NCBI GenBank assembly: GCA_964512835.1 | Contig: CAZELA010000001.1 | Span: forward strand, 233,372-297,371 | DNA: 64,000 nt | DNA from: an uncultured Candidatus Saccharibacteria bacterium | GTDB taxonomy: Bacteria; Patescibacteriota; Minisyncoccia; Phycocordibacterales; UBA2100 | Direction: 5' to 3' | Shown here: positions 1-64,000 of the stretch, in pieces | Layout: the number at the start of each line of letters is the position of its first letter | Numbering within the stretch: the first letter of the stretch is position 1 | The notes under the pieces: generated by a model | The model's database searches: none | The model's input: only the letters and a program-made list of their open reading frames with translations | What the model was told of the DNA's origin: nothing | Program-made: the position numbers and the translations under genes

Positions 1-572
1 TCTCGATCATGCAGATGGCGGTGTTCTCGGTCGCATTCGTGTTTACGCAGTACAAGGAAAAAGGGGTGCTTAAGCGTCTGCTTGCAACGCCGATGCCGCC
101 GTTTGCGTTCGTGCTCTCGAATGCGATTACGCGACTGTTTGTATCGATCGCTCAGGCTGCGATATTCATTATTCTTGGTCTTATCCTGTTCAAGATCCAT
201 GTGGTGGGTTCATACTTCCTGCTTGCCCTTACGGTCGTGCTCGGTGCATTCATGTTCCTGGGGCTCGGATTCACGATTTCAGGGTTGGCTAAAACTACGG
301 ATACCGTGCCCGTTCTCGCCAACCTCACTGTCTTTCCGATGATGTTTTTGGGCGGCACATTCTTCGCTGTTGAGAACATGCCGGGTTGGCTTCAAGTGGT
401 GGCTAAACTGCTCCCGCTCACGTTCTTTTCGACCGCTGTACGAGAGATCATGACCAAGGGAACCGGTCTCAGCGGTATATGGATTGATCTTGTAGGTATG
501 CTCGTGTGGGCGGTCATCCTGTATATTCTCGCCACATTCACGTTCCGCATGCAGGAAAAAGACGCCTCGTAG
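1..572 (+). CDS. ABC-2 type transporter permease, C-terminal part (5' end outside window)
   Basis: Polytopic hydrophobic protein with ABC-2 permease-like TM pattern; ORF open at the window start. Confidence 0.55.
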   Translation, partial: SIMQMAVFSVAFVFTQYKEKGVLKRLLATPMPPFAFVLSNAITRLFVSIAQAAIFIILGLILFKIHVVGSYFLLALTVVLGAFMFLGLGFTISGLAKTTDTVPVLANLTVFPMMFLGGTFFAVENMPGWLQVVAKLLPLTFFSTAVREIMTKGTGLSGIWIDLVGMLVWAVILYILATFTFRMQEKDAS

Positions 573-16809: not shown

Positions 16810-19320
16810 ATGGCGCGCGCAAAAAAGAACGACACCCCGTCAGATGACGACAAGGGTGCAGGATCAGACATAGCTACCGGTAATGTAATCGCACGATCAA
16901 TCACGCAGGAAATGCGAGAATCGTATCTCGATTACGCGATGACGGTTATTACCGCGCGCGCACTCCCTGATGTGCGAGACGGTTTCAAGCCTGTGCACCG
17001 ACGCATCATGTATGCGATGCAGGAAGCAGGTCTTACTGCGAATGCAAAGACCCGAAAGTCGGCAACGGTCGTCGGAGATGTGCTCGGTAAATATCACCCG
17101 CACGGCGACGCATCGGTGTACGACGCGATGGTGAAAATGGCGCAGGACTTTTCGATGCGCTATCCGCTCGTAATCGGTCAGGGAAACTTCGGATCTATCG
17201 ACGGCGACGGTGCGGCAGCGTACCGCTACACGGAGGCGAAGATGTCTCGCATGGGAGGCGAAATGCTTCGCGATATCGACAAAGAAACTGTCGATTTTCG
17301 CCCAAACTACGACAATACAAAACAGGAACCGACGGTTCTCCCGACCACGATTCCGAACCTCCTCTTGAACGGCACGCTCGGTATTGCCGTCGGTATGGCA
17401 TCGAACATTGCACCGCACAATTTGCGCGAAGTGGGCGAGGCTGCAGTGCATCTCATCGAGAACCCGGAAGCTACGACGGAAGACTTGCTGCAATTCGTAC
17501 AGGGGCCGGACTTCCCGACAGGTTGCATCGCATTTAATAAAAAAGACATTGCGGCCGCATATACGACGGGTCGCGGACCGGTCGTCGTGCGTGGCAATGC
17601 CGAGATCGTTGAAGGTAAAAAGGGTGACTACCAAATCATCATTACCTCGATTCCGTACCGTGTGGTGAAGGCAGACCTCATCACCAAGGTCGCTGATCTT
17701 GTGCAGGAGAAAAAGCTCGAAGGAATCCGAGACATTCGTGATGAATCAACAAAGGATATCCGTATCGTCATTGAGCTCAAGAACAACGCAAACGCGCAGA
17801 CCGTTCTCAATTATCTGTACAAGCACACACAGCTCGAGGATACGTTCCACTACAACATGGTGGCACTCGTCGACGGCGTTCCGCAGACGCTTTCGCTCAA
17901 AGCAATGCTTGAGTACTACGTTGCGCACCGCAAAGAGGTCGTGACACGCCGCACCAAGTACGATCTGAAGATCGCCGAGGCGCGCGAGCACATCCTGCTC
18001 GGTCTGAAGAAAGCACTCGACCACCTCGACGAGATTATCGCGCTCATCCGTAAGTCAAAGACCGTCGATGATGCTCGCTCGGGCCTCATGACGAAGTTCA
18101 AGTTCTCCGAAATCCAGGCACAGGCGATCCTTGACCTCCGACTCCAGAAGCTTGCAGCTCTCGAGCGCCAGAAGATCGAAGACGAATTGAAGGAAGTTCA
18201 GGCGCTTATCGAAGAGCTTCGTGCGCTCCTTAAGAGCGAAAAGAAACTCATGGATCTCATCAAGAAGGAGATTCGCGAGGTTGTCGAGAAATACGGTGAC
18301 GACCGCAGAACAAAGATCGTAAAGGGTGGTGCGACCATTCTCTCGGCAGAAGATCTTGTTGCCGACGACGAGTCGGTGCTGGTGCTCACATCAGGCGGCT
18401 ACATCAAGCGCACTAATCCCAGCGAATATCGACGCCAGAAGCGCGGTGGCGTGGGTGTCGTGGACCTTGATACCAAGGAAGAGGACTTTGTGACGCAGTT
18501 TTTGACCGCGTCGGCACATTCCGACCTCCTGTTCTTCTCGGATCGCGGAAAGGCATACCAGCTCAAAATGTACGAACTGCCGGAGGGTAAGCGTGCTACG
18601 AAGGGCAAATCTATCATGAACTTCCTTTCGCTCGAGCAGGGTGAACAGATCACCTCGATTCTCTCGATGCCGAAAGAAAAGAAGGCCGCTGACGACCTCT
18701 CGCTGCTCATGGCAACGAAAAACGGCACCGTGAAGCGCGTAGCCGCATCCAACTTTAAAGAAGTTCGACGCTCCGGCCTGATCGCCATCGGTTTGGATAA
18801 GGGCGACTCACTCATATCCGCTGAATTCGTGCGAAAGGGCGACGACGCGCTGCTCGTGACCGCAAAGGGTCAGTCGATCCGGTTTGCTGCGGATGACGTG
18901 CGTGAAATGGGCCGACAGGCGGCGGGTGTGCGCGGTATGAAGCTCGGTTCAGCGGACTCCATTGTAGGTGCCGGTGTTATTCCGAAAGGCTCAAAAGATG
19001 CGGAGCTGCTTGTAGTCTCATCGACCGGATACGGCAAAAAGACAAAGCTTTCCGAATACAAGACACAGGGGCGAGGAGGTTCCGGTATTAAAACGATGTC
19101 GATTACCGCGAAGACAAAACAATTGGTCGGCGGATACGTCCTGTTGAAAGACGGTGAACTCGTTGCTATGTCGAAGAAGTCGCAGACCATCCGTACGGGA
19201 CTCGACGAGATTCCGACCCTGTCGCGTGCAACGCAGGGAGTTCGCGTAATGAAAATGCGCGATGGAGACGAAGTCGCATCGTTCGTAGTCTTCGAGGCAG
19301 AGGAAGAGGGTAAGGAATAG
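16810..19320 (+). CDS. gyrA: DNA gyrase subunit A
   Basis: [28 protein letters not shown] active-site region, 836 aa, C-terminal beta-pinwheel repeats. Confidence 0.95.
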
Positions 19321-19359
19321 TCCCCATATTCAGAATGTAATTCGAGATACCGCCACGTC

Positions 19360-19941
19360 GTGGCGGTATACTTGTGTGTAATGACGAATCCGCTTCAGAC
19401 GGCGAATTTTGCGCATCCGCCCCGCAATATCGGTGCGCTTGGAGTGGAACCCGGCATGATCGTCGCCGATTTCGGTTCGGGATCAGGCGCGTACGTGCAT
19501 CTGATTGCAGAGCGACTTGCGCACGCGGGTCGCGTCTATGCGATCGACGTACAACAGGATTTGTTGCGACGAATCAAGAACGAATCGCATAAGCGCGGAT
19601 ATGCGAATGTGGAAACCGTGTGGGGAGATCTTGAGCGCTCACACGGATCAAAGATTGCGGCAAATCATACCGATCGTGTCCTCATATCGAATCTCCTGTT
19701 TCAGCTCGAAGACAAAGACATTCCGCTTCGCGAGGCGTTCAGAATACTGAAGCCGAACGGTCTTTTGGCCGTGATCGACTGGAGCGAATCGTTCGGAGGG
19801 CTTGGTCCCCAAAAGAAAGATGTCGTTAAGAAAGAATCGGCCGTTAAGCACATCACAGCTGCCGGGTTCGTGATGGTGCATGAATTCGAAGCCGGCGCGC
19901 ATCACTACGGATTACTCGCAAAGAAACCCGCACACGTATGA
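19360..19941 (+). CDS. class I SAM-dependent methyltransferase
   Basis: Motif I VADFGSGSGAY; later motifs LKPNGLLAVID. Confidence 0.65.
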   Translation: MAVYLCVMTNPLQTANFAHPPRNIGALGVEPGMIVADFGSGSGAYVHLIAERLAHAGRVYAIDVQQDLLRRIKNESHKRGYANVETVWGDLERSHGSKIAANHTDRVLISNLLFQLEDKDIPLREAFRILKPNGLLAVIDWSESFGGLGPQKKDVVKKESAVKHITAAGFVMVHEFEAGAHHYGLLAKKPAHV

Positions 19942-21293
19942 AGGCCAGCGGCATGTCGATGTTCCAGGTCATTTTGCTCTGCATATTCGGTGCAGGAGCG
20001 ATTGCCGGCGTGCTTATTTTTGCGCTTGCGGTCGGCAAAGGGAACTCGAGTTCGATCGGCAATGTGGTGATCTGGGGAACGTTTGACGGCAACACATTTA
20101 CCGACTCGCTCAGACAAATTCAGGATCAGGATTCGAGCATGCTCGGTGTTACGTATGTTCAGAAGGATCCCGATTCATACATGCAGGAGCTCACTGATGC
20201 GCTCGCGAGCGGTAAGGGGCCGGATCTGTTTATTATGCGAGATGATCAGGCACTCTCTCAGGAAAGTCGTGTAATCAAGATTCCGTATACGGCAAAGGTG
20301 GGACAGCAATCGCTCACGATGAACGATTATCAGACTATTTTCGCGGATTCGATATCGCCCTTCCTGACTCCCGAGGGCAGCATGGGCATTCCGCTTTTCA
20401 TTGACCCGCTCGTTCTCTATTGGAACAAAGACATGCTGAACACGGCCGGGTATGCGCGTGCGCCGTTGTATTGGGACGAGGTGCAGGACATGGCACAAAA
20501 GATCACTAAGCGTACAGAGACCGGCACGATCATAAAGGCGACCATTCCGTTCGGTCTGTACCGCAACGTGAACAACGCAAAGGAGATTCTGTCGATGCTT
20601 GTTATGCAGGCGGGCGGCCAGATCACCGGACGGGATCAGGACAACGTACTCCAGGCTGAACTTGCGCCTCAGGAGCGCGACGTTGCTCAGTCATCGCTTG
20701 CCGCACTGAGGTTTTATACTGAATTTGCCGATCCTGCGAAGCCCGGTTATTCATGGAATGCATCCTTGCCTGAGGCGCGAAAAGCGTTTATTGCGGGGGA
20801 CCTTGCGCTCTATATCGGGCATGCGAGCGAAAAAGACACGATCAGGGCTGCGAATCCGAACCTCAATATGGCGATCGCCGCGATCCCGCAGCGACGCTCC
20901 GCGACGACCGCGAGCAACGCCGGATTTACGTATGCATTCTCCATACCGAGGACGAGTAAGAATCAGACCGGCGCATTCACGGTTGCTACCACGCTCGCGA
21001 ACGGTCAAAACGCGCTCGCGCTTTCGCAAACGTTTAATTTGCCCTCTGCACGCCGCGACGTGCTCTCAAAACCTTTCACGACCGATCTCAATGATTTTAA
21101 TAAGCAGGCGATCCTGGTGCGTTCGTGGACCGACCCGAATCCGGCTCGCACGAGCGAGATCTTTCGCGCTATGATTGAAGACACGGTCTCCGGATCGATG
21201 CTTCTCGGCGAGTCTGTGCAGCGTGCAGACCGCGAGATTGCGGCTATCCTGGACGCATACAACCAGCAGCGTAATCAGCAACAAATACAATGA
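19938..21293 (+). CDS. membrane-anchored extracellular solute-binding protein (ABC SBP family 1-like, orphan)
   Basis: N-terminal TM anchor; sugar-SBP-like LVLYWNKDMLNTAGY...PLYWDEV; no permease or ATPase adjacent. Confidence 0.55.
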   Translation: MKASGMSMFQVILLCIFGAGAIAGVLIFALAVGKGNSSSIGNVVIWGTFDGNTFTDSLRQIQDQDSSMLGVTYVQKDPDSYMQELTDALASGKGPDLFIMRDDQALSQESRVIKIPYTAKVGQQSLTMNDYQTIFADSISPFLTPEGSMGIPLFIDPLVLYWNKDMLNTAGYARAPLYWDEVQDMAQKITKRTETGTIIKATIPFGLYRNVNNAKEILSMLVMQAGGQITGRDQDNVLQAELAPQERDVAQSSLAALRFYTEFADPAKPGYSWNASLPEARKAFIAGDLALYIGHASEKDTIRAANPNLNMAIAAIPQRRSATTASNAGFTYAFSIPRTSKNQTGAFTVATTLANGQNALALSQTFNLPSARRDVLSKPFTTDLNDFNKQAILVRSWTDPNPARTSEIFRAMIEDTVSGSMLLGESVQRADREIAAILDAYNQQRNQQQIQ

Positions 21294-21661
21294 AGACACG
21301 TACGGTGATAACTGCACATGTGCTCGTGGGAGCGATGGTCGCACTTTTGGGGGCGGATGTCGCGTTTGCGCAAACACAATCAGGGCTTCGTAACCCGCTC
21401 GAAGGGGGAGGCATCAGTACTATTCCGCAATTCATCTCGAGCGCCTTGAAAGTGATGGTTATGGTGGCGCTCCCGATTATTACCCTGTTCATGGTGTATT
21501 CGGGCTTTTTGTTCGTACTTGCACAAGGAAACCAGGAGCAGCTTGCGAAAGCAAAAACAAACTTCGTATACGTAGTCATCGGCGCAATCCTTATCCTGGG
21601 TGCGTGGGTCTTTGCGTCACTGCTTGGCGGAACCATATCCGAACTCACGAGCGGCACATGA
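21290..21661 (+). CDS. TrbC/VirB2-like (T4SS-pilin-like) small membrane protein, paralog A
   Basis: Signal peptide plus two hydrophobic helices; ATGA overlap with upstream gene. Confidence 0.5.
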   Translation: MKTRTVITAHVLVGAMVALLGADVAFAQTQSGLRNPLEGGGISTIPQFISSALKVMVMVALPIITLFMVYSGFLFVLAQGNQEQLAKAKTNFVYVVIGAILILGAWVFASLLGGTISELTSGT

Positions 21662-22062
21662 GGACGATACTGCGCATCGCACCGTTTCTGGCCCTCGCGT
21701 TGCCGTTCAGCGCTTCTGCGGAAGTTGCACATACGCTGCGCGACCTTGTCGGTCAGATTGTGAACCTATTAAACACGGCGACCGGCGTCCTGGTCGCTGC
21801 GGCGCTTGTCGCGTTTCTGTACGGCGCTGCCTACAACATGATGAAGGCGGGCGAACGTGGAAGCGGAGCCCTCAGGCAGTTTTTGGTCTGGGGTGTGATC
21901 ATTCTGTTCGTGATGGTATCCATCTGGGGCATCCTCAATGTACTTCAGCAGACGCTCTTCGGAACGGGTGCCGGCGGATCAAGCAGCGGCGGCTCCGGCA
22001 TCAACGGAAGCGGAGGATCGGGTGTGCGGAATGACCCCGGATCGAATATTATTTTCGAATAG
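21658..22062 (+). CDS. TrbC/VirB2-like small membrane protein, paralog B
   Basis: Signal peptide ...SASAEVAH; helices with FVMVSIWGILNVL shared with paralog D; Gly/Ser-rich tail; ATGA overlap with A. Confidence 0.5.
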   Translation: MRTILRIAPFLALALPFSASAEVAHTLRDLVGQIVNLLNTATGVLVAAALVAFLYGAAYNMMKAGERGSGALRQFLVWGVIILFVMVSIWGILNVLQQTLFGTGAGGSSSGGSGINGSGGSGVRNDPGSNIIFE

Positions 22063-22063
22063 T

Positions 22064-22390
22064 ATGGACCTGTCTACGGTCGTTGCACTGTTTAATATTG
22101 TCGTCGGGGGGATGCTGGTGATATCGATCCTCATGATGTTCGGCGGCCTGGGGCTCTGGTACGTGCGCCTCGGTACGTGGCCGACATATCGCGACGAAGC
22201 GATTGACTACATGCGGTGGGGAGTATCAGTGCTGTTCGTTCTTGTCGTGCTGCTTGGCATTGCGCAATACGTTCAGACTCACATGGCTCTCTCTATGCTT
22301 GCGCTCGGGGCAGTGGTCGCGGCCATTGTTGTGTACTTTGTCGGTACACAGCTTATGGCCGGAGGCGGAGACGAGGAAGAACACCACTAG
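22064..22390 (+). CDS. small polytopic membrane protein, paralog C (no signal peptide, acidic tail)
   Basis: Starts 2 nt after B's stop; 3 TM; C-terminus GGGDEEEHH. Confidence 0.45.
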   Translation: MDLSTVVALFNIVVGGMLVISILMMFGGLGLWYVRLGTWPTYRDEAIDYMRWGVSVLFVLVVLLGIAQYVQTHMALSMLALGAVVAAIVVYFVGTQLMAGGGDEEEHH

Positions 22391-22501
22391 TGGTTTGTGC
22401 AGACGCTTCCCGCTATCCACATTCATAAAAATGTGGCCTTGTACTCGTGCGTACACGGGATACGATTGAGGAACTAGTACTAACGTTATTTCTTTATTTT
22501 T

Positions 22502-22873
22502 ATGCGCAGAACGCTTATTCAGATCGGTTCGACAGCAGCGACCCTCGCTTTCGTAGGCCTTCCGTCACTCGTTGCCGCACAGCAGACGGCTGCACAGGGA
22601 CTCTTGGGTACGCTCGCGCTTGCGAACCGCATTCTCAACGGTTTGGTTGGTCTCCTCATTCTCGTCGCTATCCTCGCGTTCTTCTGGGGTTTGATCAAAT
22701 ACCTCTTCTCGGGAGGCGGTGAAGATAAGTCAGAAGGTCTCAAGCTCATGTTCTACGGTGTCATCGCGATCTTCGTGATGGTATCAATCTGGGGCATCAT
22801 CCGACTCCTTCAGAACACATTCGGTGTTACGCAGAACACGTCGATCACTCCTGACGGTATCCGCTCCTTCTAA
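22502..22873 (+). CDS. TrbC/VirB2-like small membrane protein, paralog D
   Basis: Signal peptide ...LVAAQQ; two helices; FVMVSIWGIIRLLQNTFG. Confidence 0.5.
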   Translation: MRRTLIQIGSTAATLAFVGLPSLVAAQQTAAQGLLGTLALANRILNGLVGLLILVAILAFFWGLIKYLFSGGGEDKSEGLKLMFYGVIAIFVMVSIWGIIRLLQNTFGVTQNTSITPDGIRSF

Positions 22874-22896
22874 GCTCGCTCTGATATTGCGGGCAT

Positions 22897-23202
22897 ATGG
22901 AAGCGGCAGCAACGATAGTCCAACGGCTCAACGACCTGATCATCAGGCCATTGATCCTGTTGGTATTTGCCGGCGGGTTCTTCCTGTTCATGTGGGGGTT
23001 GGTTGTGTTTTTGTGGAATTCGCGCGAAGGGGAAGTTGCGACCGAGGGTAAGCAGCACATGCTCTGGGGTATCGTGGGCATGTTCGTGATGATCTCGGTG
23101 GGCGGAATTCTTTCCATCATCCTCAACACCTTTGGAATCAATCAGACGAGTGCGACCGATACGAGTAATGCGCAGGGGTTCAGCAATGTGCAGTTTAGGT
23201 AA
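22897..23202 (+). CDS. small membrane protein, paralog E
   Basis: Two TM; MFVMISVGGILSIILNTFG homologous to B and D. Confidence 0.45.
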   Translation: MEAAATIVQRLNDLIIRPLILLVFAGGFFLFMWGLVVFLWNSREGEVATEGKQHMLWGIVGMFVMISVGGILSIILNTFGINQTSATDTSNAQGFSNVQFR

Positions 23203-23362
23203 GAAACGGGGACTCGATCACGAATAAAATCCACGCCGTCGCGATCAAGGGGGACTCGGCCAAGCGCTCGCTTCGTCGCCGTCGCGACGAAGCTCCGTTC
23301 GGCCCTGCTCGCGCATCCCCGTCTACTGACGGGGCCCCAGCGCTCGCTTTCTCGTCCCCGCC

Positions 23363-23410
23363 TTTGCTCTACCAAATACAAAAGATCGAGGCATGCCTCG
23401 ATCTTTTGTA
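23363..23410. terminator. long perfect palindrome / bidirectional terminator
   Basis: CAAATACAAAAGATCGAGGCATGCCTCGATCTTTTGTATTTG (19-bp stem). Confidence 0.7.
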
Positions 23411-23416
23411 TTTGTG

Positions 23417-23498
23417 TGGGCAAGGGGGGACTCGAACCCCCAATCCTTACGGAACCAGTTCCTAAGACTGGCGCGTATACCAATTCCGCCACTTGCCC
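23417..23498 (-). tRNA. tRNA-Leu (anticodon TAG), type II, CCA not encoded
   Basis: Manual fold: acceptor GGGCAAG/CTTGCCC, anticodon loop CTTAGGA, long variable arm, T-arm GGTTCGAGTCC. Confidence 0.8.
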
Positions 23499-23573
23499 AT
23501 CTGCACGATATTACACCTTTTCGGCTCGACCGAGCTATCGGTAACTCGCGCCGTAACGCACTATTTTCCTTTG

Positions 23574-23594
23574 CCAATTCCGCCACTTGCCCAT
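23574..23594 (-). repeat. exact 21-bp copy of the tRNA-Leu(TAG) 5' end in its upstream leader
   Basis: CCAATTCCGCCACTTGCCCAT also at 23480-23500; preceded on the tRNA strand by a TATAGT -10-like box. Confidence 0.7.
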
Positions 23595-23628
23595 TCGCGG
23601 CACACTATAGCACCAATTGTATCGAATG

Positions 23629-23657
23629 TTGACAATGGTATTTCAACATGCTATTAT
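23629..23657 (+). promoter_or_regulatory. consensus sigma70-type promoter for the DEAD-box helicase gene
   Basis: TTGACA, 17 bp, TATTAT; about 125-nt leader before the ATG at 23789. Confidence 0.6.
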
Positions 23658-23788
23658 CCACACACCAACGTACTCGTATTCTTTTGTCTTGAGCTACCTC
23701 TCGAGACCGCCCCGTAGTCGAATTGTGGGGTCGAGGAAAGCTCGAGGCGCTGGAATTAACGACTAGTGCCGTATATTCGGCTTACTAT

Positions 23789-24997
23789 ATGTACAAACAG
23801 TACTCACGTTCGGGCGGCGGTTCTCGCTCCCGATTCGGCGGACGCTCCGGCGGCCGCGCAAATTATCCGAAAAGTCGCGCACCGCGACAGATGGGTCAAT
23901 ACATTGATCCGGCTCGCTTTGTAAACAAGGCGACAGTCACCGAGGTGCAGGACGTATTCGTGCCGCAGCATAACTTCGCGGACTTTGACGTAGCAGACAG
24001 CCTGAAAAACAACATCATCAAGAAAGGCTACGTAACTCCGACTCCTATTCAGGACCATGCGATCCCGCATGTGCTCCATGGTGAAGATGTGCTCGGTATT
24101 GCTGATACCGGTACCGGCAAGACCGCAGCGTTCCTCATTCCGCTCATCAACAAAGTATTGAATGACCGATCGCAAAAGGTATTGATTATGGTGCCGACCC
24201 GTGAACTCGCGACTCAGATCGAGGACGAGTACTGGGGATTCGCAGACCACATGCGCATCGGCGCGGTGACCGTTGTAGGCGGTGCGAACATCAATAAGCA
24301 GATCCAGACGCTCCGACGACGACCGAACTTTGTAATCGGTACACCGGGACGACTGAAAGATCTCATGAGCCAGGGCGAGCTCGACCTCTCGGACTTCAAC
24401 ACTGTTGTTCTCGACGAGGCAGACCGCATGCTCGACATGGGTTTCATCCAGGACATGCGATTCATTCTTTCGCACATGCCGACGGAGCGGCACACGCTGT
24501 TTTTTACAGCGACGCTCTCGCGCGACATCGAACGAATGGTGCACGACTTCCTCAATAATCCGGTCCAGATCAAGATCAAGACGCGCGATACTGCTGCGTC
24601 AGTGGATCAGGACATCGTGAATGTGCGCGGTCGTGAAAAGATCGACGTGCTGCAGGAATTGCTCGCTCAGCCGGAATTCGAAAAGGTAATAGTCTTCGGA
24701 CGTACCAAACACGGCGTCGAAAAGCTTGCAAAAATGCTCGCAAAGAACGGATTCAAAGCTGAGTCCATTCACGGCAACAAAACGCAGAATAAGCGTGACC
24801 GCGCGCTCACATCGTTCAAAAAGGGACAGGTAAATATCCTCGTTGCGACAGACGTCGCTGCCCGAGGTATCGACGTCTCGGACGTATCGCACGTGATCAA
24901 CTACGATCAGCCGACGACCTACGATGACTATGTACACCGCATCGGCCGAACAGGCCGCGCAGGCAAGGCGGGAAAGGCGCTGACATTTGTCGGCTAA
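23789..24997 (+). CDS. DEAD-box ATP-dependent RNA helicase with N-terminal RGG-rich segment
   Basis: Motifs ADTGTGKT, PTRELA, DEAD (VLDEADRML), SAT, HRIGRTGRAG; N-terminus SRSGGGSRSRFGGRSGGR. Confidence 0.85.
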   Translation: MYKQYSRSGGGSRSRFGGRSGGRANYPKSRAPRQMGQYIDPARFVNKATVTEVQDVFVPQHNFADFDVADSLKNNIIKKGYVTPTPIQDHAIPHVLHGEDVLGIADTGTGKTAAFLIPLINKVLNDRSQKVLIMVPTRELATQIEDEYWGFADHMRIGAVTVVGGANINKQIQTLRRRPNFVIGTPGRLKDLMSQGELDLSDFNTVVLDEADRMLDMGFIQDMRFILSHMPTERHTLFFTATLSRDIERMVHDFLNNPVQIKIKTRDTAASVDQDIVNVRGREKIDVLQELLAQPEFEKVIVFGRTKHGVEKLAKMLAKNGFKAESIHGNKTQNKRDRALTSFKKGQVNILVATDVAARGIDVSDVSHVINYDQPTTYDDYVHRIGRTGRAGKAGKALTFVG

Positions 24998-25117: not shown

Positions 25118-26392
25118 CTAGGCCGCGCTGTCGGGCGTCTGCGGCATTCCTTTGATGAGTGTAGCCACCTCGTGCCACAGCGATGTCGGGTCCGACATCT
25201 GTTTCTCGGCAAGTGCCCAGTCGAACTGCCCGCGAACATACTTGCGGCTGTCCTGGATGCCTTCTTCGTGCGGTAGGTTCGACATACCGATCTCGTCGCC
25301 GTAGTACATGATGGGCGAGCCGGGGAGTGAGTAGAGGAGTTTGAATGCGCGTCGCATACCCTCGCGGTCTCCGCGAAACACCTGACCGACCCGCGCCGAT
25401 GTAAACGGTGTCTTTTTGAAGTGGAACAATCCATCCGGATCGAGGAAGGCGACGAGTGCCGATCGGATGCCCGGTTCAAGTGTGGCGAGCGAAATCTCGT
25501 CGTGATTGCGTAGGAATATTGCCCAGGAACAATTATCGGGAATATCCGATGTGGCATCTACCATCTCTTGCACGGCGAGCGTCTCGCTCTTTTGGAGTGC
25601 GAGCCACATTTGCTCCATAAGATTGAAGTGGTAGGCCATATGACACTCGTCACCGTCGCCGAAATACTTCTTTGTATCCTCTACACTCAAGTGTGCCTCG
25701 GACAGGAGAATCACGTCCGGGTATTCTTTTTCAAGGGCGGCTCGTAGTCGCTTGAGCACCGCATGCGTCTCGGGCAATCCGCGACAATTGGTGCCGTCGC
25801 GCTTTACCAGGAATGGGGCAGCATCGAGCCGGAATCCGCTCACGCCCATATCTGCCCAGAATTTCATTACTCCAAACATTTCATTGAACACCTCGTCGTT
25901 GTCCCAATTGAGATCCGGTTGCTCGGGATAAAACGTGGCGAAATAGTAGTCGCCCGTTGTCTCGTTTGGCATCCATACGGTATCGCCAAACATGTTTTGA
26001 GCGAGCGGGAACTCGGTTCCCGTTTCCGACCAGAGATAGTAATCGCGTTTGGGATTGGAGCGTGAGGAGCTCGCTTCGATAAACCACGGGTGTTTGTTGC
26101 TCGTGTGATTAAGAACGAGATCGAGGATGATACGTATGCCGCGACCGCGCGCTTCGCGCACGAGCCGTTCCATGTCGTGGATGGTACCGAGGTCTTCGCG
26201 CACATTGCGGTAGTCCGAGATGTCGTATCCGTCATCAATCATCGGCGACGGGTAGTGGGGCAGGATGTGGAGACAGTTGATACCGAGTGCCTCAAAATAC
26301 GGCAGCTGCGCCGTAAGGCCGTTCAAATCTTTGTTGAACTTGTCGACATACAGCTCGTATATTTTTGCTGATTTCCACCAGTATTCGGCCAT
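25118..26392 (-). CDS. GH13 alpha-amylase-family glycoside hydrolase (catalytic domain only)
   Basis: GH13 regions DLVLNHTS, GFRLDAA, EAH...; start taken at MAEYWWK. Confidence 0.7.
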   Translation of the reverse strand: MAEYWWKSAKIYELYVDKFNKDLNGLTAQLPYFEALGINCLHILPHYPSPMIDDGYDISDYRNVREDLGTIHDMERLVREARGRGIRIILDLVLNHTSNKHPWFIEASSSRSNPKRDYYLWSETGTEFPLAQNMFGDTVWMPNETTGDYYFATFYPEQPDLNWDNDEVFNEMFGVMKFWADMGVSGFRLDAAPFLVKRDGTNCRGLPETHAVLKRLRAALEKEYPDVILLSEAHLSVEDTKKYFGDGDECHMAYHFNLMEQMWLALQKSETLAVQEMVDATSDIPDNCSWAIFLRNHDEISLATLEPGIRSALVAFLDPDGLFHFKKTPFTSARVGQVFRGDREGMRRAFKLLYSLPGSPIMYYGDEIGMSNLPHEEGIQDSRKYVRGQFDWALAEKQMSDPTSLWHEVATLIKGMPQTPDSAA

Positions 26393-26435
26393 CGGTCGAT
26401 TATAGGGCACTTCACCGTGGGCGGCGCTTGTCAGT

Positions 26436-27002
26436 GTGGTCTCGCAATGGTACACCTGCCAGCAGTTCAGGGAGGATGAATCGATGAAAATGCTGAGACG
26501 CTGGTTCTCTACATTCGTTGATAGTGCAGTTGTGATCGACGTGGACTACTCCAAGCCCCTCTATATACCAATAGGGGCGAGCGGTTTGAGCCGGCATCGG
26601 CCAGTTGGAACTGGCCGTATGTCGCTGCTGCCGCATAGTTTTGAATTGCGTGAGATGCCGCTGGGCATGACGTACGACGGATATTTCGACGCGCATGGCG
26701 ATGACATGATGTGCGATGCGGCCGTTCTCGACGGCATCGTGGCGTACGTCACGAAGGATGGTTTGGATGGGCGCTCGGTCGAACGGCGAATGTTCAAGTT
26801 GTTCGGCGACTTCCGCGGGCAAGTTTTTTTCCTGGGGACGTCGTTTACGTCGCCGGATAATGGGGTACATGTACCGTATTTGAATGTGCGGACAAACATG
26901 CCGGCCCTCAGGTACGCGTGCCCGTCGCATCATCCGATGAATCACGATTTCGACGTGCGCGTGTGTCACCTTGCACCGGTGCAACCAATCGTCGGCCCGT
27001 AG
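26436..27002 (+). CDS. hypothetical protein (strand assignment uncertain)
   Basis: 188-aa ORF with GC3-rich codons, convergent with cspA onto a shared terminator; a 199-aa antisense ORF also exists. Confidence 0.3.
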   Translation: MVSQWYTCQQFREDESMKMLRRWFSTFVDSAVVIDVDYSKPLYIPIGASGLSRHRPVGTGRMSLLPHSFELREMPLGMTYDGYFDAHGDDMMCDAAVLDGIVAYVTKDGLDGRSVERRMFKLFGDFRGQVFFLGTSFTSPDNGVHVPYLNVRTNMPALRYACPSHHPMNHDFDVRVCHLAPVQPIVGP

Positions 27003-41230: not shown

Positions 41231-41276
41231 GCAAAAAGCCCCTAACCGGGGCTTTTTGCGTGGTACGATTTACCGC

Positions 41277-41684
41277 ATGATATTGAGGCAGGTGAAGGTA
41301 CTTGCGACCATTTCTGTCTTCGTGATGATGCTGCTCCCGCTGTACGCGACGGCAGCCGGCATTCCCACGCAGATCGTTCCGTCACAATACAACTGTGATC
41401 AGGAGGGAGGATGCGATTCTATCTGTGCGATCGTGGTACTGGCCCAGAACGTGCTCAATTTTGGCATCTTTATGGCGGTGGTCATTTCCGCTTTTTTGTT
41501 CGCCTACGCAGGCTGGAACATGCTCACATCGGGAGGTAATGCCGAAGTGTATGCAAAGGGGAAACGGGTATTCAGTAATGTTCTGATCGGACTCATCATT
41601 ATCCTGGCGGGCTGGATTGTGATCGATACCCTGATGAAAACCTTTACCGGCACGGGCCTGACTGGAGCGGGGATCTGCGTGTAG
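41277..41684 (+). CDS. TrbC/VirB2-like small membrane protein, paralog F
   Basis: Signal peptide ...LYATAAG; two helices; resembles paralogs A-E at 21.3-23.2 kb. Confidence 0.5.
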   Translation: MILRQVKVLATISVFVMMLLPLYATAAGIPTQIVPSQYNCDQEGGCDSICAIVVLAQNVLNFGIFMAVVISAFLFAYAGWNMLTSGGNAEVYAKGKRVFSNVLIGLIIILAGWIVIDTLMKTFTGTGLTGAGICV

Positions 41685-52831: not shown

Positions 52832-53731
52832 TCATTCAGCCGGAACAAGTGCGTGCAGTCGGTCAGCTTCTGCGATTACCTCACGAGCATGGGCAATCCG
52901 CACCTCGTCATCAGTCGGGGCAGGTAAGCGAGGAATGACGACCGAGTCGATCAGAGCCATGCGCTCTTGAAGAGAGAGCTTTCTGGATCGCGGCCGCTTT
53001 GGTGTAGGCGGCTTCCGCTGTATCGCAACGACCCGCGGGCGGCTGCTCCGTTTCTTGCGCACTCCGCGTGCAAGGTTTTCGGAGCACGTCCAGAACAGTC
53101 TCTCGGCGTCATCCGTGGCTGCATCGCGCATACGGTCAATCTTGCCGAGCACGGCGCATCGGCCGCCGTCGTTGCAGTGCGTAAAGATGCCGAGTTTCTC
53201 GGCGATCTCGTATGCCGTCAGACCTTGCGCGCAACACAGTGCCAGCTCTGCAACGTGACCGATCGTCCATCTCGCTCGATGGCGACCGATCGTTCGCTTT
53301 GAAACTCCGTCAGTTGATCGCACAAAGCGCCGGTCACGCCGATCCCAAAACGCGAGCTCAGCAGCGGAGCATGCGGTGCGCCGGTGAATCGTTGCGCGTT
53401 TGCGGATCTCTGTGTGCGGGTCGGCATATGCGGCAAGAAACGGCAACATGCGTACCATCTTCTGTGCGGTGACGCCCTCGCTCCACATGCGCGCAAGCGC
53501 AATGTCCGCTTCGTGTGACCATCCCGGCAGGGAACGGCTCCAAAATGCGCGCTCAGCATCGCTGTGTGCCGCTTTGCGCAATCGGTCGATGCGACCGAGC
53601 ACGGCACTCTTTCCCTTATCGCGATATCTGTGGAGAACATCAAACTGTGCGGCGACCTCGGTGGCGCTCAAGCCCTCGTGCCACGCCCGCACGAGCGCTA
53701 CGTCGCGTTCGTGTGTCCAGACACTGTGCAT
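52832..53731 (-). CDS. protein with three tandem GcrA-like N-terminal domains
   Basis: Three repeats of W-T/S-x-E/H...L...W.EG.SA/T..IA...SAVLG+IDR+R; GC-rich. Confidence 0.5.
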   Translation of the reverse strand: MHSVWTHERDVALVRAWHEGLSATEVAAQFDVLHRYRDKGKSAVLGRIDRLRKAAHSDAERAFWSRSLPGWSHEADIALARMWSEGVTAQKMVRMLPFLAAYADPHTEIRKRATIHRRTACSAAELAFWDRRDRRFVRSTDGVSKRTIGRHRARWTIGHVAELALCCAQGLTAYEIAEKLGIFTHCNDGGRCAVLGKIDRMRDAATDDAERLFWTCSENLARGVRKKRSSRPRVVAIQRKPPTPKRPRSRKLSLQERMALIDSVVIPRLPAPTDDEVRIAHAREVIAEADRLHALVPAE

Positions 53732-53806
53732 GGTGATGCCTCGTACTTGTGAACTGTTTGAACGATACACCCCGGCGAGGGGTATGCAATCCGCTTAGAA
53801 AAAAAG

Positions 53807-59913: not shown

Positions 59914-60143
59914 GCGCTATCCTTCCTTCAGGTTTGGCTTTTTTCACTATATACCTATGAAATATGAAAGAAAGTGCGTCAATAAAAATGCGAAAATATG
60001 GCTCAATGGAGCCACGGTGCAGACTTGACGTGTAATGTGAATTCTGGCATACTTGCGCCCGGCTACCGATGATCTTTCTGATCATTGAAAACAGCAAAGA
60101 GTTTACGACTACCACCCTCCAGCAAAGGACGAAGGAGAAGGCA

Positions 60144-61532
60144 ATGACCGAAGCGCAGACCCTGACCAAAGGTGGCCTCAATGAGGCCGCTGCATCGATC
60201 GCGCAGATGGATTCTGCGATGAGCAGTTTCCAGCGCACGACGCTGAACGACCTCCTGACGCAGCAGGAAACCCTGCTGAATCAACAGAAGGAAGTCGCTC
60301 AGCTCGACGACGCCAAGGAGCGTGCTGCGAAGACCGAGATCCTCAACGCGAATCTGGATTCGCTCCAGACCAAGATCGCCGCATACCGCGACGACACCGC
60401 TGAGCTGATCGCCGGCCTCGAGGCGCATTTCGAGAAGATCGGGCAATCGCTCGCCGGCTTGCAGAAGCCGACCGAGACCGACCTGAGCGTCGTGAAGCGT
60501 GCCGAGGAATTCCTCAAGAAGGTGCAGGACGACGGCGTCATCGCGCGCAAGCTGCTGACCGACGCGGTCACCGAAGCCCAGGGCGCGTTCTTCAACAGCG
60601 CCGGCAAGACGGCCGAGGCGAATCAAAAGCTCGCCGCGTTCGATCTCCAGCAGGAGGCCGACGTGAAGGCCGCCGGAATTGCCGTCGAGGAAGCGAAGGC
60701 TGAAGTCGAGCGGGCGCGCCGCAAGCGCATCCGCGAGGCGGACTTCGATGCGCAGTTCGATCGGTTCATCGCGATGGCGCAGCAGATTCAGAAGAATCTG
60801 CTCGACAACGTGATGGGCAGCGAAGTGCGGATGAAGGAGACTCAGAACGCCTTCATTGTATCGCTCAAGCAGAAGGAGTCGGCCGCGCTGAAGATGGCCG
60901 AAATCGCCGGCAAGATCCGCGAAAAGGAGAACGAGGTGATGAACCTCGAATCCGAACGCGGACAGACCGCCGACGAAGCGGCTCGCGCGACGGTCGACGT
61001 CAAGCTCGGTGTCGCCAATCAGGAGCTCGCTGACCTCAACGGTCAGAAACAGGAACTCCAGGTTGCGCACAACGCCGAAGAATCGGCGGCCAAGAAGCAC
61101 GAGACGATCCTGGCCACGCTGCAAGTTCAGCGTGAGAACCAGCGCTCGCACGCCGTGAAGCTCTCGATCGATGTGAAGGCGCGCTTCCAGCAGGCGCAGA
61201 ATATCGTCACGGTCATCAAGAACACGGCGCAGGAAGATGCGGCCTCGCGGCTGCATCAGGCCGGCTCGTCGATGGATCGCATGTCTCTCGAGATCGCGGC
61301 CCGCGCGCTCATTGCGAGCGAACGGGAGCGCCTCAACATGCTGCTCAATCACGAGAAGGACATGAAGGGCTTCGAAGAAGTGCGGTCGACGCTCGCCGAA
61401 GGGCGCGCGGACATCGCGGTCAGGGACGCCGAGATCATGGCGCGGATGAGGCAGGACTACGGCATCGATCCCTTGGGGTCGAGCTGGCTGCATCTCGCTG
61501 AACAGCACGTCGAAGAAAAGAAGGCGGCGTAA
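60144..61532 (+). CDS. long all-alpha coiled-coil protein (TelA/KlaB-like or PspA/ESCRT-III-like by composition only)
   Basis: 462 aa, Q/A/E/K-rich heptad-like sequence, no TM; RBS GGAGAAGG; GC clearly higher than the rest of the window; followed by hairpin GGGGCGCC...GGCGCCCC. Confidence 0.55.
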   Translation: MTEAQTLTKGGLNEAAASIAQMDSAMSSFQRTTLNDLLTQQETLLNQQKEVAQLDDAKERAAKTEILNANLDSLQTKIAAYRDDTAELIAGLEAHFEKIGQSLAGLQKPTETDLSVVKRAEEFLKKVQDDGVIARKLLTDAVTEAQGAFFNSAGKTAEANQKLAAFDLQQEADVKAAGIAVEEAKAEVERARRKRIREADFDAQFDRFIAMAQQIQKNLLDNVMGSEVRMKETQNAFIVSLKQKESAALKMAEIAGKIREKENEVMNLESERGQTADEAARATVDVKLGVANQELADLNGQKQELQVAHNAEESAAKKHETILATLQVQRENQRSHAVKLSIDVKARFQQAQNIVTVIKNTAQEDAASRLHQAGSSMDRMSLEIAARALIASERERLNMLLNHEKDMKGFEEVRSTLAEGRADIAVRDAEIMARMRQDYGIDPLGSSWLHLAEQHVEEKKAA

Positions 61533-61640
61533 GCCGTTGAACTGAACTGTTAGGTGGGGCGCCCGATTCAATCGCGGCGCCCCATTTCTCTTATGCAGAC
61601 AGGAATGGCCGATCGAATGAACACTCATGGGGAGAGCAGA

Positions 61641-62735
61641 ATGCAGCGACCTATCACCGGCGCGGGCAACACCGTCACGCTCATGAATAATGGCGACGGA
61701 CGATATGCCCGCTACTTTACCGAGCTCGACCGGGCGCTGCGCATGATTAATGCGTGGGCGCGCGGATACGCGAGCGGCACCATCGACGGATCGTGGCACG
61801 CGAACTATCTACGGGGACTCGCGGCTTGTTTTACCATGCTGCGCTCCCGTTACAGTTTTGAGTCATCTGATTCGTTCATGGTCGATCTTTCGCATTCGGG
61901 GTTTCCGCACAGCTTCATGCTGACGCGGATCGCTACCGATCGTGCGGAGGCGCTTGCCGAGCACTTCAAGAGCGAACCGCTTTCCGTCGGTGAATACAAA
62001 GTCGTCTTTCTTGACGACCTCTTCGCCACCGGACAAGTCAATCCCGCGCTCCTTAACAGGATCGCGAGTGCACAATATGCGGAAGTCGTCGCGAAAATGG
62101 ACGGGGCATTCGACCCGCGCTTTATGTGCGGAGAGCCTGTTTCGGTCAATGTCGCGAAGCGACGATATCGTTTGCAGTGGGCAGCGTTTGATCCGGCGGT
62201 TAATCTGCCGGTTCTGTGCGGGATGGCATTCGAACACGTCGGTGCCGATCTTACGAGGTCGATGCAGGCGTTGAAGTTGCTCCTCAAGCACGAAACGAGT
62301 GCCGGTACATCGATCGTCTCCCTCGCGGAGCGGATCGATTCCGGCAACAGCGATGTGAGACCGCTCGTGTTCACGCGGGTCACCGTGGGACCGATTCACT
62401 TGCCGGGCTTCACCGACATGACGGATACGGTCCGCGAACTCTCCGGCAACAGCGAAGAGGAGATGATGATCGAGCTTATTGCCGATCATACGCATGCGGT
62501 CAGCATCAGAAAGACAAGCGTACTCGCCGTGAAGTTGGGCGTGTCACCGGCTGAACAGCTCGTGTACGCGACCAAAGTGAATGACCCGCTCTGCTTCCAA
62601 CGCGGAGCGGAACAGGTTGAACGACTTGTGATCCTGCCGCATCGCATGCTGCAGGACATGGCGCCCACGACGCGATCGCATGTAAGCACCGACTACACAC
62701 TCATCCCGTATACCCAAGAAGGAGAAATCCAGTGA
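61641..62735 (+). CDS. hypothetical protein (no recognisable domain)
   Basis: RBS GGGGAGAG before the ATG at 61641; 364 aa; stop overlaps the next gene start (GTGA). Confidence 0.5.
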   Translation: MQRPITGAGNTVTLMNNGDGRYARYFTELDRALRMINAWARGYASGTIDGSWHANYLRGLAACFTMLRSRYSFESSDSFMVDLSHSGFPHSFMLTRIATDRAEALAEHFKSEPLSVGEYKVVFLDDLFATGQVNPALLNRIASAQYAEVVAKMDGAFDPRFMCGEPVSVNVAKRRYRLQWAAFDPAVNLPVLCGMAFEHVGADLTRSMQALKLLLKHETSAGTSIVSLAERIDSGNSDVRPLVFTRVTVGPIHLPGFTDMTDTVRELSGNSEEEMMIELIADHTHAVSIRKTSVLAVKLGVSPAEQLVYATKVNDPLCFQRGAEQVERLVILPHRMLQDMAPTTRSHVSTDYTLIPYTQEGEIQ

Positions 62736-64000
62736 ACGGCGGATCCAAAACGGAGATCAAGGCTGCTCAAATAGCGGAGCATCTGCGCAATGCAGATGCG
62801 CTCGTGACGAAAGTCGATTGGGCAGCCAAGAAAGCGCCACCTGCACCGGGCAATCTGTACCGCGAACGCTTGCTTGCAAGCGCCGCTGCAACCCCGAGTG
62901 CCTCGCTTATCGAAGCGATCAAGAACATCCGCAAGGACGGCTCTTCGATTGTCGACAAGGCCGAGCATCGCGTGCTCCACGACGTGCGCCGCGGTATCCA
63001 GATCGGATACGCGGTCGCCGAGGAGTACCGCCGCACGGTCGGCATCGAGAACGTGGGGGATCTCTCAAAAATTTCCCCTGAGCAGAAAGGTGTCATCCAG
63101 GAGAAGATGCGCACGGCGGCAGCACTTTCGCTGTACACGCTCGCGCGTTACGTCTCGGAAGGTCTCGCGGACGTCGGTGACGACCAGGCGCACAAGGAGC
63201 ACGTCGTGCTTCCCGAATGCGCGCTGGACAATCCGATCGCCGCGGCCAAATGCGCGCTCTACTACCTGAGCCTGAACCTGGCACATCCGAGCGTGAGCAA
63301 CGACAAGGCGCTCAACGCGACGGTGTATCTGTTCTTCCGTCAGGTCCTCGACGAGATCGAAGCCCGCAAGGCATCGTTCACGTACCTCGAATCGTTCCAG
63401 TCCATCGCGTTCGGCATCGAAGGCGAGGACTTCACGGTCGAGGGTCTCGAGCGTCACGACAGTCGCGCGGTCAGCGTCGAGTTCAACCGTCAGGAAATGG
63501 ACGGCATCGTCGGCAACGCCGATGCCAAACATGCCTCGACACGACTCGCGCGCCGGCTCGCGTGCTACAACATGCGCGAACAGGCGAACGTGTTCCAGAG
63601 GCTCGGCGGACTCATGCCGGTGTGGATGGGATACGGCAAACCCGGTACGGGCAAGTCGATGATCATCGCCGCGATAGCGACGCTGCTCGACGACCTCTGC
63701 AAGGCCCGGGGTATCCCGTTCCTGTTCCATCCGCTGCCGGACAACCTGATCGATTCGTATCAGGGAAACACGGCGCGGAACATGGTCAACTACATGAAAG
63801 CGTTCCTCGATCCCGGCCGCATCACATTCGGTGCGATCGACGACAGTGAGAACGTGTTTCAGGACCGTTCACGGCAGGGAGTGAGCGAGGGCGAGCGCGC
63901 CGCGATCGGCGTGTTCCTCCGCTATACCGAAGGTGCATACGCGATCACTCGCGGCAACGCCACCATCGGTGCGTTCACGAACATGCCGGAAGTGTTCGAC
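62732..64000 (+). CDS. AAA+ ATPase with about 290-aa N-terminal domain (3' end outside window)
   Basis: RBS AAGGAGA then GTG; Walker A MGYGKPGTGKSMIIAAIATLL about 300 aa in; Walker-B-like ITFGAIDDSE; open to the window end so absent from the ORF track. Confidence 0.6.
   Translation, partial: MNGGSKTEIKAAQIAEHLRNADALVTKVDWAAKKAPPAPGNLYRERLLASAAATPSASLIEAIKNIRKDGSSIVDKAEHRVLHDVRRGIQIGYAVAEEYRRTVGIENVGDLSKISPEQKGVIQEKMRTAAALSLYTLARYVSEGLADVGDDQAHKEHVVLPECALDNPIAAAKCALYYLSLNLAHPSVSNDKALNATVYLFFRQVLDEIEARKASFTYLESFQSIAFGIEGEDFTVEGLERHDSRAVSVEFNRQEMDGIVGNADAKHASTRLARRLACYNMREQANVFQRLGGLMPVWMGYGKPGTGKSMIIAAIATLLDDLCKARGIPFLFHPLPDNLIDSYQGNTARNMVNYMKAFLDPGRITFGAIDDSENVFQDRSRQGVSEGERAAIGVFLRYTEGAYAITRGNATIGAFTNMPEVFD

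Follow-up and report, generated by a model that had tools for sequence, protein, structure and literature searches.

A conserved Kaiserbacteria-type gene block that encodes a MalE-like solute-binding protein and five TrbC/VirB2-like small membrane proteins

Layout of the locus

The window analysed in this work is a 64-kb stretch of contig CAZELA010000001.1. The locus under study is a block of seven genes that are tightly packed on the plus strand at 19381-23202, downstream of gyrA (16810-19320). The block consists of a methyltransferase gene, a gene for a membrane-anchored solute-binding protein (SBP), and five genes for small TrbC/VirB2-like proteins that are designated A to E. The initial annotation of the window had described these five genes as a tandem array in an operon with an orphan SBP. 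The coordinates, the peptides, and the overlaps at SBP/A and A/B that it had given are all correct; the peptides were found in B (FVMVSIWGILNVLQ), D (FVMVSIWGIIRLLQ), and E (FVMISVGGILSIIL). The observation is confirmed by the findings in this work, and its first interpretation is supported. The open reading frames (ORFs) of A to E and SBP are genuine genes and not chance ORFs because their orthologs occupy the same position in about 80 other genomes. The features of the locus, and one lone pilin-like gene elsewhere in the window, are as follows.

19321-19380, plus strand: promoter-like region 5' of the methyltransferase gene, of putative function (cross-locus comparison and hairpin)
19381-19941, plus strand: class I S-adenosylmethionine-dependent methyltransferase, 186 aa (Pfam Methyltransf_31/25/11)
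19938-21293, plus strand: SBP, membrane-anchored MalE-like (CUT1-type) oligosaccharide-binding protein, 451 aa (Pfam, AlphaFold, Foldseek)
21290-21661, plus strand: pilin-like A, 123 aa, signal peptide and two-helix hairpin (PF18895, PF04956)
21658-22062, plus strand: pilin-like B, 134 aa, with the start at the ATG in the overlap with A (hhalign to D)
22064-22390, plus strand: pilin-like C, 108 aa, hairpin and third membrane helix (hhalign to D)
22391-22501, plus strand: internal promoter-like region before D (cross-locus comparison)
22502-22873, plus strand: pilin-like D, 123 aa, signal peptide and two helices (PF18895)
22897-23202, plus strand: pilin-like E, 101 aa, two helices without a signal peptide (hhalign to D)
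23361-23426, no strand assigned: palindromic hairpin with T-runs on both strands (inverted repeat and fold)
23416-23498, minus strand: tRNA-Leu(TAG), convergent with the array (ARAGORN; Rfam tRNA 61 bits)
41274-41684, plus strand: lone pilin-like F, signal peptide, Cys-rich stretch, and two helices (phmmer to A)

The ATGA overlaps are present at three junctions, which are methyltransferase/SBP (19938-19941), SBP/A, and A/B. The remaining gaps are 1 nt between B and C, 111 nt between C and D, and 23 nt between D and E. The start of C at 22064 is taken from the gene calls in identical contigs; the longest ORF of C would begin at 21938. The methyltransferase is predicted to be cytoplasmic. The whole is best described as a conserved, putative cell-surface operon whose first genes are translationally coupled.

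The array is followed by a hairpin about 170 nt past the stop codon of E. The hairpin (23372-23415) has perfect arms of 21 nt and directly adjoins the 3' end of tRNA-Leu(TAG) on the minus strand, and the region at 23361-23426 folds with -45.1 kcal/mol (z = -9.7). It is likely to be a bidirectional terminator that serves the array on the plus strand and tRNA-Leu on the minus strand because T-runs are present on both strands. This agrees with the earlier description of an array that ends at a palindromic terminator immediately before the tRNA. The tRNA was the sole match in the Rfam search of 19000-24000.

The window has 54-60% G+C, contains seven tRNAs, and is rich in housekeeping genes (ftsZ, ftsA, gyrA, clpB, topA, infB, relA, dprA, and parB). 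It is chromosomal DNA of a Kaiserbacteria-type Patescibacterium (candidate phyla radiation, class Paceibacteria) and not a mobile element.

The five pilin-like proteins and their conservation

The family membership of A to E was assessed against the Pfam family T4SS_pilin (PF18895), which has a curated gathering threshold of 26.6 bits. A and D score above this threshold with 37.6 and 35.0 bits, respectively, which bears out the earlier reading of the array as TrbC/VirB2-like pilins. E, C, and B score 19.7, 16.5, and 12.8 bits, respectively. A also matches the TrbC/VirB2 family (PF04956) from model position 9 to 96 of 98 with 25.8 bits (E = 1.3e-5), which is just under the threshold of 27.9 bits for that family. 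All 70 D orthologs match PF18895 (E <= 0.01), and most A orthologs have precomputed matches to both PF18895 and PF04956. No PF04956 match was found in B to E except in one of the 70 D orthologs. A appears to be the most TrbC/VirB2-like member of the array. Weak matches of 14-24 bits were found for A, B, D, and E to the Mycoplasma pilin-like family of Mbov_0395 (NCBIfam NF045849), whose cut-off is 40 bits.

Other families were also searched. No match for A to E or F was found among the PHROGs phage families, holins included (E <= 0.01), and no competing Pfam or NCBIfam family was found to outscore the pilin models for A to E. PHROGs does not hold bacteriocin immunity proteins, and the sole check for those is the absence of a higher-scoring Pfam or NCBIfam family. 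The proposal that these proteins might be holins or belong to another family is thus not borne out.

The kinship among the five proteins was assessed by hhalign of the ortholog alignments. The probabilities are 99.8% for B-D (E = 8.5e-29), 99.6% for D-E, 98.6% for B-E, 97.9% for C-D, 95.9% for B-C, and 90% for C-E, and the C-D match spans the first two helices of C. By these profiles, B, C, D, and E form one subfamily, and A is only distantly related to it. The five ORFs had been called paralogs; this holds for B, C, D, and E by profile comparison, but A is joined to them only via PF18895. The pairwise identity among the five is 18-41%.

The topology of A to E was predicted from hydropathy and a cleavage-motif rule, not from SignalP or DeepTMHMM. 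In A, B, and D, a basic N-terminus leads into a hydrophobic core and an AxA-type site, and two helices follow, which is the VirB2 pattern. The predicted cleavage sites are AFA|Q in A, ASA|E in B, and VAA|Q in D. By the same rule, E has only the hairpin, without a signal peptide, and C has the hairpin, a third helix, and an acidic C-terminal tail, also without a signal peptide. The earlier statement that most of the proteins have a signal peptide and two helices is therefore correct for three of the five; it does not hold for E, which has no signal peptide, or for C, which has no signal peptide and three helices. C probably stays in the membrane, and its tail should face the cytoplasm. B has a Gly/Ser-rich C-terminal tail that, like the tail of E, is surface-exposed and poorly conserved. 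Since there are three topology classes, A to E appear to be architecturally differentiated. The AlphaFold model of A (pLDDT 83) has helices at 3-29, 45-77, and 82-121, which correspond to a signal helix and a long helical hairpin. A signal peptidase I gene is present in the window.

The conservation of the block was assessed in the loci of relatives from 86 sources. The genome scan was conducted with the SBP alignment and one genome per species, and it covers the best 80 of 482 loci, where the SBP identity is 42-99%. The order SBP-A-B-C-D-E was found in 65 of the 86 sources, and the exceptions are nearly all contig ends or cases where the C copy falls under the threshold. With the methyltransferase included, the order is kept in about 80 Kaiserbacteria-type species, and each of A to E has its own positional ortholog. 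A orthologs were found in 83 of the 86 sources. The methyltransferase gene lies upstream of SBP in 82 of the 86; among the 79 with sufficient sequence on that side, it is no more than 60 nt away in 68, and the -4 overlap of these two genes is common among the relatives. The 4-nt SBP/A overlap is present in 48 of the 83 genomes, and the A/B spacing is +1 or -4 in most. The earlier claim of an SBP inside a pilin operon is thereby upheld.

The median identities to the loci with SBP identity under 60% are 83% for GyrA, 60% for the methyltransferase, 48% for SBP, 55% for A, 40% for B, 43% for C, 57% for D, and 50% for E. D is thus the best-conserved small protein. A to E appear to evolve about as fast as SBP and faster than the housekeeping proteins, and the pattern points clearly to purifying selection. 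The surroundings of the block are less constant. Several loci have extra genes inserted between gyrA and the methyltransferase gene, and the downstream neighbour, a DEAD-box helicase gene, is common to only nine of the 86 sources. The block from the methyltransferase to E therefore appears to be held together while its surroundings change. Slow genome rearrangement as the sole cause of the synteny with gyrA was considered and rejected, given the insertions after gyrA and the varying downstream neighbours.

The fixed order and copy number, the one-to-one orthologs, and the differing architectures point to non-redundant subunits. A to E are a fixed set of differentiated subunits and not a recently amplified or variable array.

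The solute-binding protein, the relatives of A, and the promoter-like regions

SBP matches the Pfam families SBP_bac_8 (67 bits) and SBP_bac_1 (65 bits). Its AlphaFold model (pLDDT 91.5) has a membrane helix at 8-33 that is followed by the two-lobed type II SBP fold of the MalE class. No lipobox was found; the protein has a single N-terminal membrane helix, and a conserved ALA|VG behind this long helix is a possible cleavage site. The top Foldseek matches are sugar-binding SBPs with E values of 1e-23 to 1e-19 (5ci5, MalE2/3, 1eu8, and 5ysf). The closest structures are MalE-class oligosaccharide binders, with maltodextrin, trehalose, and beta-glucan among the ligands; they include Thermotoga MalE2/3, the trehalose/maltose-binding protein, a sophoro-oligosaccharide binder, and GacH. 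SBP has many invariant aromatic and acidic or amide residues, which fit a sugar site that is probably retained. The database homologs of SBP number more than 1200, and the named ones are from Candidatus Kaiserbacteria, Paceibacterota, or Parcubacteria. The homolog search that started from the SBP of the relative with the lowest GyrA identity to the window (locus L060) recovered the same tight family and no wider reach.

Besides its SBP, an ABC importer of the CUT1 type has two permease subunits and an ATPase, and the genes for these were searched for around SBP. Motif scan and Pfam showed neither an ABC nucleotide-binding domain nor a CUT1 permease motif in the window. No ABC importer gene was found within 8 kb of SBP in the 86 sources, where the only ATPase was one unrelated ORF of 642 aa. 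SBP is an orphan at the level of the locus, as had been noted. A partial membrane protein of the ABC-2 exporter type, encoded at the edge of the window (9-572, plus strand), is the sole ABC transporter component seen there; this permease class is not known to use SBPs. A cytoplasmic enzyme of the GH13 alpha-amylase family is encoded 2 kb downstream of the array (25118-26455, minus strand). This gene is adjacent in six of the 86 sources, all of them close relatives, and the enzyme is a possible consumer of the sugars bound by SBP.

The relatives of A among the cluster representatives number 5722 at E <= 1e-3. The best 149 of these include 102 short pilins, 37 proteins with a large N-terminal extracellular domain before the hairpin, two with a C-terminal extracellular domain, and seven single chains of 2-8 hairpins with one signal peptide. 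Three proteins from other uncultured bacteria (P0325, P0326, and P0332) have 5-8 T4SS_pilin hairpins fused behind a single signal peptide, and such fused chains have 10-16 helices. P0325 (L086:9925-12387) is a protein of 820 aa with eight repeats that was found in three data sources. At locus L086, its gene is followed by another pilin gene, a pilin-PKD fusion gene, and a gene for a multi-PKD protein of 718 aa, and no VirB4 gene was found within 10 kb of P0325. Given the multi-hairpin chains and the extracellular and PKD domains among these relatives, we infer that the array hairpins can operate next to one another within a single assembly and that surface-binding domains are often attached to such hairpins or found beside them. 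The SBP-A pair may represent the same theme in split form.

The lone pilin-like gene F lies between tRNA-Tyr and the genes for a YdjM-like membrane protein, rpmG, and tRNA-Trp. F matches A with 26 bits by phmmer (32% identity over 117 residues) and PF18895 with 19.1 bits, which is under the threshold.

The spacer between C and D exhibits a promoter-like region. It contains a DnaA-box-like site, cTATCCACA (22413-22421), a -35-like TTGTAC (22439-22444), and a -10-like TACGAT (22461-22466). In 68 of 78 loci, the exact 8-mer TATCCACA precedes the start of D by about 88 nt, and these copies make up 68 of all 99 occurrences in the loci. The DnaA-box-like site before D was noted as TTATCCACA, and its majority form is GTTATCCACA, the canonical DnaA-box 9-mer. 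The 8-mer is followed by ATTGTGTTTT (-35-like), a spacer of about 16 nt, and then TATACCAT or TACGAT (-10-like); the flanking intergenic sequence is not conserved. The consensus promoter scan before D gave no site, and the region is visible only through the cross-locus comparison. Given the conserved promoter-like region, D-E looks like a separate unit. D is a candidate for the major subunit because it is the best conserved and has its own promoter-like region. The DnaA-box-like motif appears specific to this block since it is not present before the pilin polyprotein gene of another lineage (L086).

The 8-mer TATCCACA has two copies in the window. The other copy lies in the stretch at 23629-23662 and is a perfect TTATCCACA that overlaps the -10 of the strongest sigma-70-like promoter match of the region (TTGACA-17-TATTAT). 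This promoter match lies upstream of the DEAD-box helicase gene (23723/23789-24997).

A TCCCCAT box directly behind the stop codon of gyrA, a hairpin (19347-19369), and a -10-like TATACT (19367-19372) that is only 8 nt from the ATG make up a second promoter-like region before the methyltransferase gene. The same layout recurs in 74 distinct loci as a TT[TG]CCCACA or TTTCCCCA box, a GC-rich hairpin, and TATATAAT or GGTATACT about 6-10 nt before the ATG. This layout suggests a near-leaderless methyltransferase transcript.

Other features of the window were also recorded. The G+C content climbs to 0.60 at 60000-64000, and long ORFs without a Pfam match are located at 60063-61799 (minus strand), 60069-61532 (plus strand), and 61554-62735 (plus strand). 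A protein of 312 aa with a GcrA cell-cycle-regulator domain at its N-terminus is encoded at 52832-53770 (minus strand). The GcrA family is best known from Alphaproteobacteria.

Interpretation and comparison with known systems

The reading that we prefer is that A to E are a hetero-oligomer of the VirB2 family that serves a VirB4-type system and that SBP adds carbohydrate recognition. A, B, and D would be inserted through Sec and cut by signal peptidase, which would leave two-helix hairpins with both ends outside the cell. C, with its extra helix, and E, without a signal peptide, would be specialised membrane subunits. Together, A to E would build a hetero-oligomeric membrane or pilus structure, comparable to major and minor pilins, and would not be interchangeable antigenic variants. 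They would serve a VirB4-type type IV secretion system (T4SS) that is encoded elsewhere in the genome. SBP would be made in step with A to C and would give carbohydrate binding at the cell surface, for host-surface glycan recognition or for ligand capture beside the pilin structure. D-E would be transcribed separately from the conserved promoter with its DnaA-box-like site. Roles in DNA uptake or attachment, as had been suggested for such arrays, may follow from this structure. We consider this reading, taken as a whole, to stand in even balance between right and wrong.

The T4SS link of this reading draws on a published survey. VirB4 is listed in 19 of 24 Kaiserbacteria assemblies among the Table S1 rows covered here (Quinonero-Coronel et al. 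2025, PMC12102498), and eight of the ten assemblies in those rows that bear the gene block are VirB4-positive. The same source places T4SS machinery near dnaA in Paceibacteria. Because VirB4 is present in eight of these ten assemblies and was not found in the window, the T4SS machinery is usually in the genome but elsewhere.

Several findings weigh against the preferred reading. A pilus made of such proteins is not known from any of the Patescibacteria. No VirB4, VirB6, or other T4SS component was found among the larger annotated ORFs of the window, none was identified among the genes that are conserved beside the block in the 8-kb flanks of the relatives, and two of the ten block-bearing draft assemblies in the Table S1 rows are listed without VirB4. 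B, C, and E alone fall under the PF18895 threshold, the topologies of C and E depart from the pilin pattern, and the direct profile comparison of A with B to E gave only 2-18%, which is no detectable kinship. The Foldseek search of the A model against PDB had no significant match, with ATP synthase subunit c ranking highest at E = 3, a result that is uninformative because a helical hairpin is too simple a fold. The profile search of PDB sequences with A also gave no match. SBP has a complete sugar-binding fold that is compatible with ordinary uptake by partners encoded elsewhere. Among 20 long relatives of A, none proved to be an SBP-pilin fusion, and their extra domains have no Pfam match except fn3 and a weak ricin-lectin match. 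The sampled clade is also fairly shallow (GyrA identity 66-95%, median 83%), and part of the synteny may reflect relatedness.

Some of these points suit another explanation, where SBP is the receptor of a plain sugar ABC importer with its permease and ATPase elsewhere, and shares the operon merely as a co-expressed envelope protein that does not interact with A to E. We regard this as unlikely, but as the alternative that survives best. It is consistent with the complete and confident MalE-like fold and the maltodextrin, trehalose, and beta-glucan binders nearest to it, with the GH13 gene 2 kb downstream in the window and close relatives, with the missing SBP-pilin fusion, and with the shallow clade (GyrA 83%). 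It fits poorly with the 4-nt SBP/A overlap in 48 of the 83 genomes and with a block that stays intact where the downstream synteny breaks. The CUT1 permease and ATPase were not found within 8 kb in the 86 sources or in the 64-kb window, and the amylase gene is adjacent in only six of the 86.

A bolder form of the preferred reading holds that SBP and the five hairpin proteins are one dedicated machine found only in Kaiserbacteria-type bacteria. It would be either a glycan-recognising pilus tip or base for host docking, or an SBP-fed conduit of pilin hairpins in the membrane that replaces the ABC permease, and the expression of D-E, as its major subunits, would be tied to DnaA via the conserved TTATCCACA. 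We hold this form to be doubtful.

A self-contained membrane complex for uptake or sensing, independent of any T4SS, is improbable in our judgement. In such a complex, the hairpins (11 helices) would take the place of the permease. This would explain why neither a T4SS gene nor an ABC permease gene lies near the block in any of the 86 sources, and it agrees with the conserved stoichiometric coupling. The related hairpins in chains of 10-16 helices also fit a membrane bundle better than a secreted filament, and C has an extra helix and a cytoplasmic acidic tail. However, the operon has no energy-coupling component, the family assignment is to conjugative-type pilins, VirB4 is present in most related assemblies, and such a transporter is without precedent.

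It is more improbable still that the array consists of interchangeable pilin variants for antigenic or host-range variation, as proposed for the VirB2 paralogs of Bartonella and Anaplasma and suggested for the arrays of Patescibacteria. The low paralog identity of 18-41% is in line with the published average of 25%, and the surface tails of B and E are poorly conserved. Against this, the copy number and order are fixed, one-to-one orthologs with 40-57% identity are present across about 80 species, and the members differ in the signal peptide and in the extra helix of C, which points to non-redundant subunits.

The idea that the small proteins are unrelated to pilins and are merely two-helix membrane proteins of a general kind, like holins or the immunity proteins of bacteriocins, with Pfam matches due to hydrophobic composition, draws on the uninformative fold search and on the three of five members under the Pfam threshold, but it is highly implausible because A and D exceed the curated threshold over nearly the whole model, A matches TrbC end to end, all 70 D orthologs match PF18895, neither a PHROGs match (holins included) nor a higher-scoring family was found, and no lysis or immunity gene context was found.

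A large fraction of uncultured bacteria belongs to the Patescibacteria, which are seemingly host-dependent. T4SS genes and pilin arrays are essential in the sole genetically tractable Patescibacteria species. A clade-wide operon that links five pilin-like subunits to a surface sugar-binding protein is a testable handle. The one-to-one orthology argues that the array copies are non-redundant subunits, which would alter the reading of arrays across the phylum. Cell-cycle control of surface structures is a possibility raised by the conserved DnaA-box-like site. If SBP is part of a plain importer, the finding shrinks to another example of the published array type.

The proteins of the array can be compared with several known systems. 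Canonical TrbC/VirB2 proteins assemble into an extracellular filament with bound lipid, and some members are cyclised. The VirB2, TrbC, and TraA proteins of Gram-negative T4SSs resemble the predicted A, B, and D in having a signal peptide and two hydrophobic helices with a short polar loop. They differ in that one subunit is present there and five distinct subunits here; here the host has a single membrane, VirB4, VirB5, and VirB6 are not found nearby, and the TrbC/VirB2 match of A is sub-threshold.

SBPs that serve T4SS biology include PrgZ/TraC of the enterococcal pheromone plasmids and ChvE, which relays a sugar signal to VirA in Agrobacterium. They are like the present case in having an SBP-fold receptor or sensor with a genetic or functional connection to a type IV system. 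However, PrgZ is peptide-binding (family 5), ChvE is monosaccharide-binding, neither is co-translated with pilins, and the link here is positional only.

In type II secretion systems and type IV pili, a major pilin is combined with a set of minor ones, as GspG is with GspH-K, and some of these form a tip or base complex that holds an adhesin. Such sets are similar in having about five differentiated subunits in a conserved order with their own orthologs. Type IV pilins have a different fold and belong to a different family, with one N-terminal helix and a globular head, and the analogy is one of logic only.

Archaeal Ced and Ted and Helicobacter ComB are T4SS-derived importers that use small VirB2-like proteins. 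They share two-helix VirB2-like proteins that work with a VirB4-type ATPase, and import, not export, has been proposed as the role. Those systems have no SBP, the present locus has no adjacent ATPase, and the systems are likened by description only. The supplement of PMC12102498 lists both Ced and Ted.

The pilin-like Mbov_0395 family (NF045849) of Mycoplasma integrative and conjugative elements belongs to monoderm MPF-FATA-type machinery that is related to the T4SS of Patescibacteria. In contrast, the proteins of this work score well under the cut-off of that family, and the locus is not on a mobile element.

The closest known systems are the VirB2-like arrays of Patescibacteria, which are already known and were published in 2023 and 2025. 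The published survey reports VirB2-like proteins in 1,948 Patescibacteria assemblies. It also counts 441 arrays, each of 2-11 genes, in 383 assemblies, with an average within-array identity of 25% (PMC12102498). Its authors propose versatility towards different hosts and report the arrays as most abundant in Saccharimonadia and Microgenomatia. Ca. Southlakia epibionticum ML1 has an array of six pilin genes in its T4SS cluster, and this array has been reported to be essential (Wang et al., PMC10633639). A VirB2-like pilin array is also present in Nanosynbacter lyticus TM7x (PMC10633639, PMC12102498, PMC12857230), and a 2025 review describes the T4SSs of Patescibacteria as the only monoderm ones with VirB2-like pilins.

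The array of this work is similar to these arrays in its PF18895/PF04956 matches, tandem arrangement, low identity, chromosomal location, and monoderm host. The published definition of an array (PMC12102498) is 2-11 pilin genes of low identity in tandem, or with one non-pilin gene between them, and A to E are five in tandem. The published T4SS clusters of Patescibacteria have pilins near virB4, VirB6/PrgH, VirB3/PrgI, TrsD, and VirB8/PrgL, and this arrangement was not found at the locus. The array also differs in that it belongs to Paceibacteria (Kaiserbacteria), is not beside virB4, and has a fixed order with one-to-one orthologs in about 80 species. Two of its members are predicted to have no signal peptide, and one of them a third helix. 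The array is coupled in translation to the genes for a methyltransferase and a MalE-like SBP, and a promoter-like region with a DnaA-box-like site lies within it. Apart from the host class, none of these differences was found in the papers searched on the pilin arrays of Patescibacteria; those papers and the parts of the PMC12102498 supplement used here were found to mention neither an SBP nor this Kaiserbacteria gene block. The fixed set of five subunits, the coupling to SBP and the methyltransferase, the regulatory island between C and D, and the promoter-like layout before the methyltransferase gene thus seem to be new.

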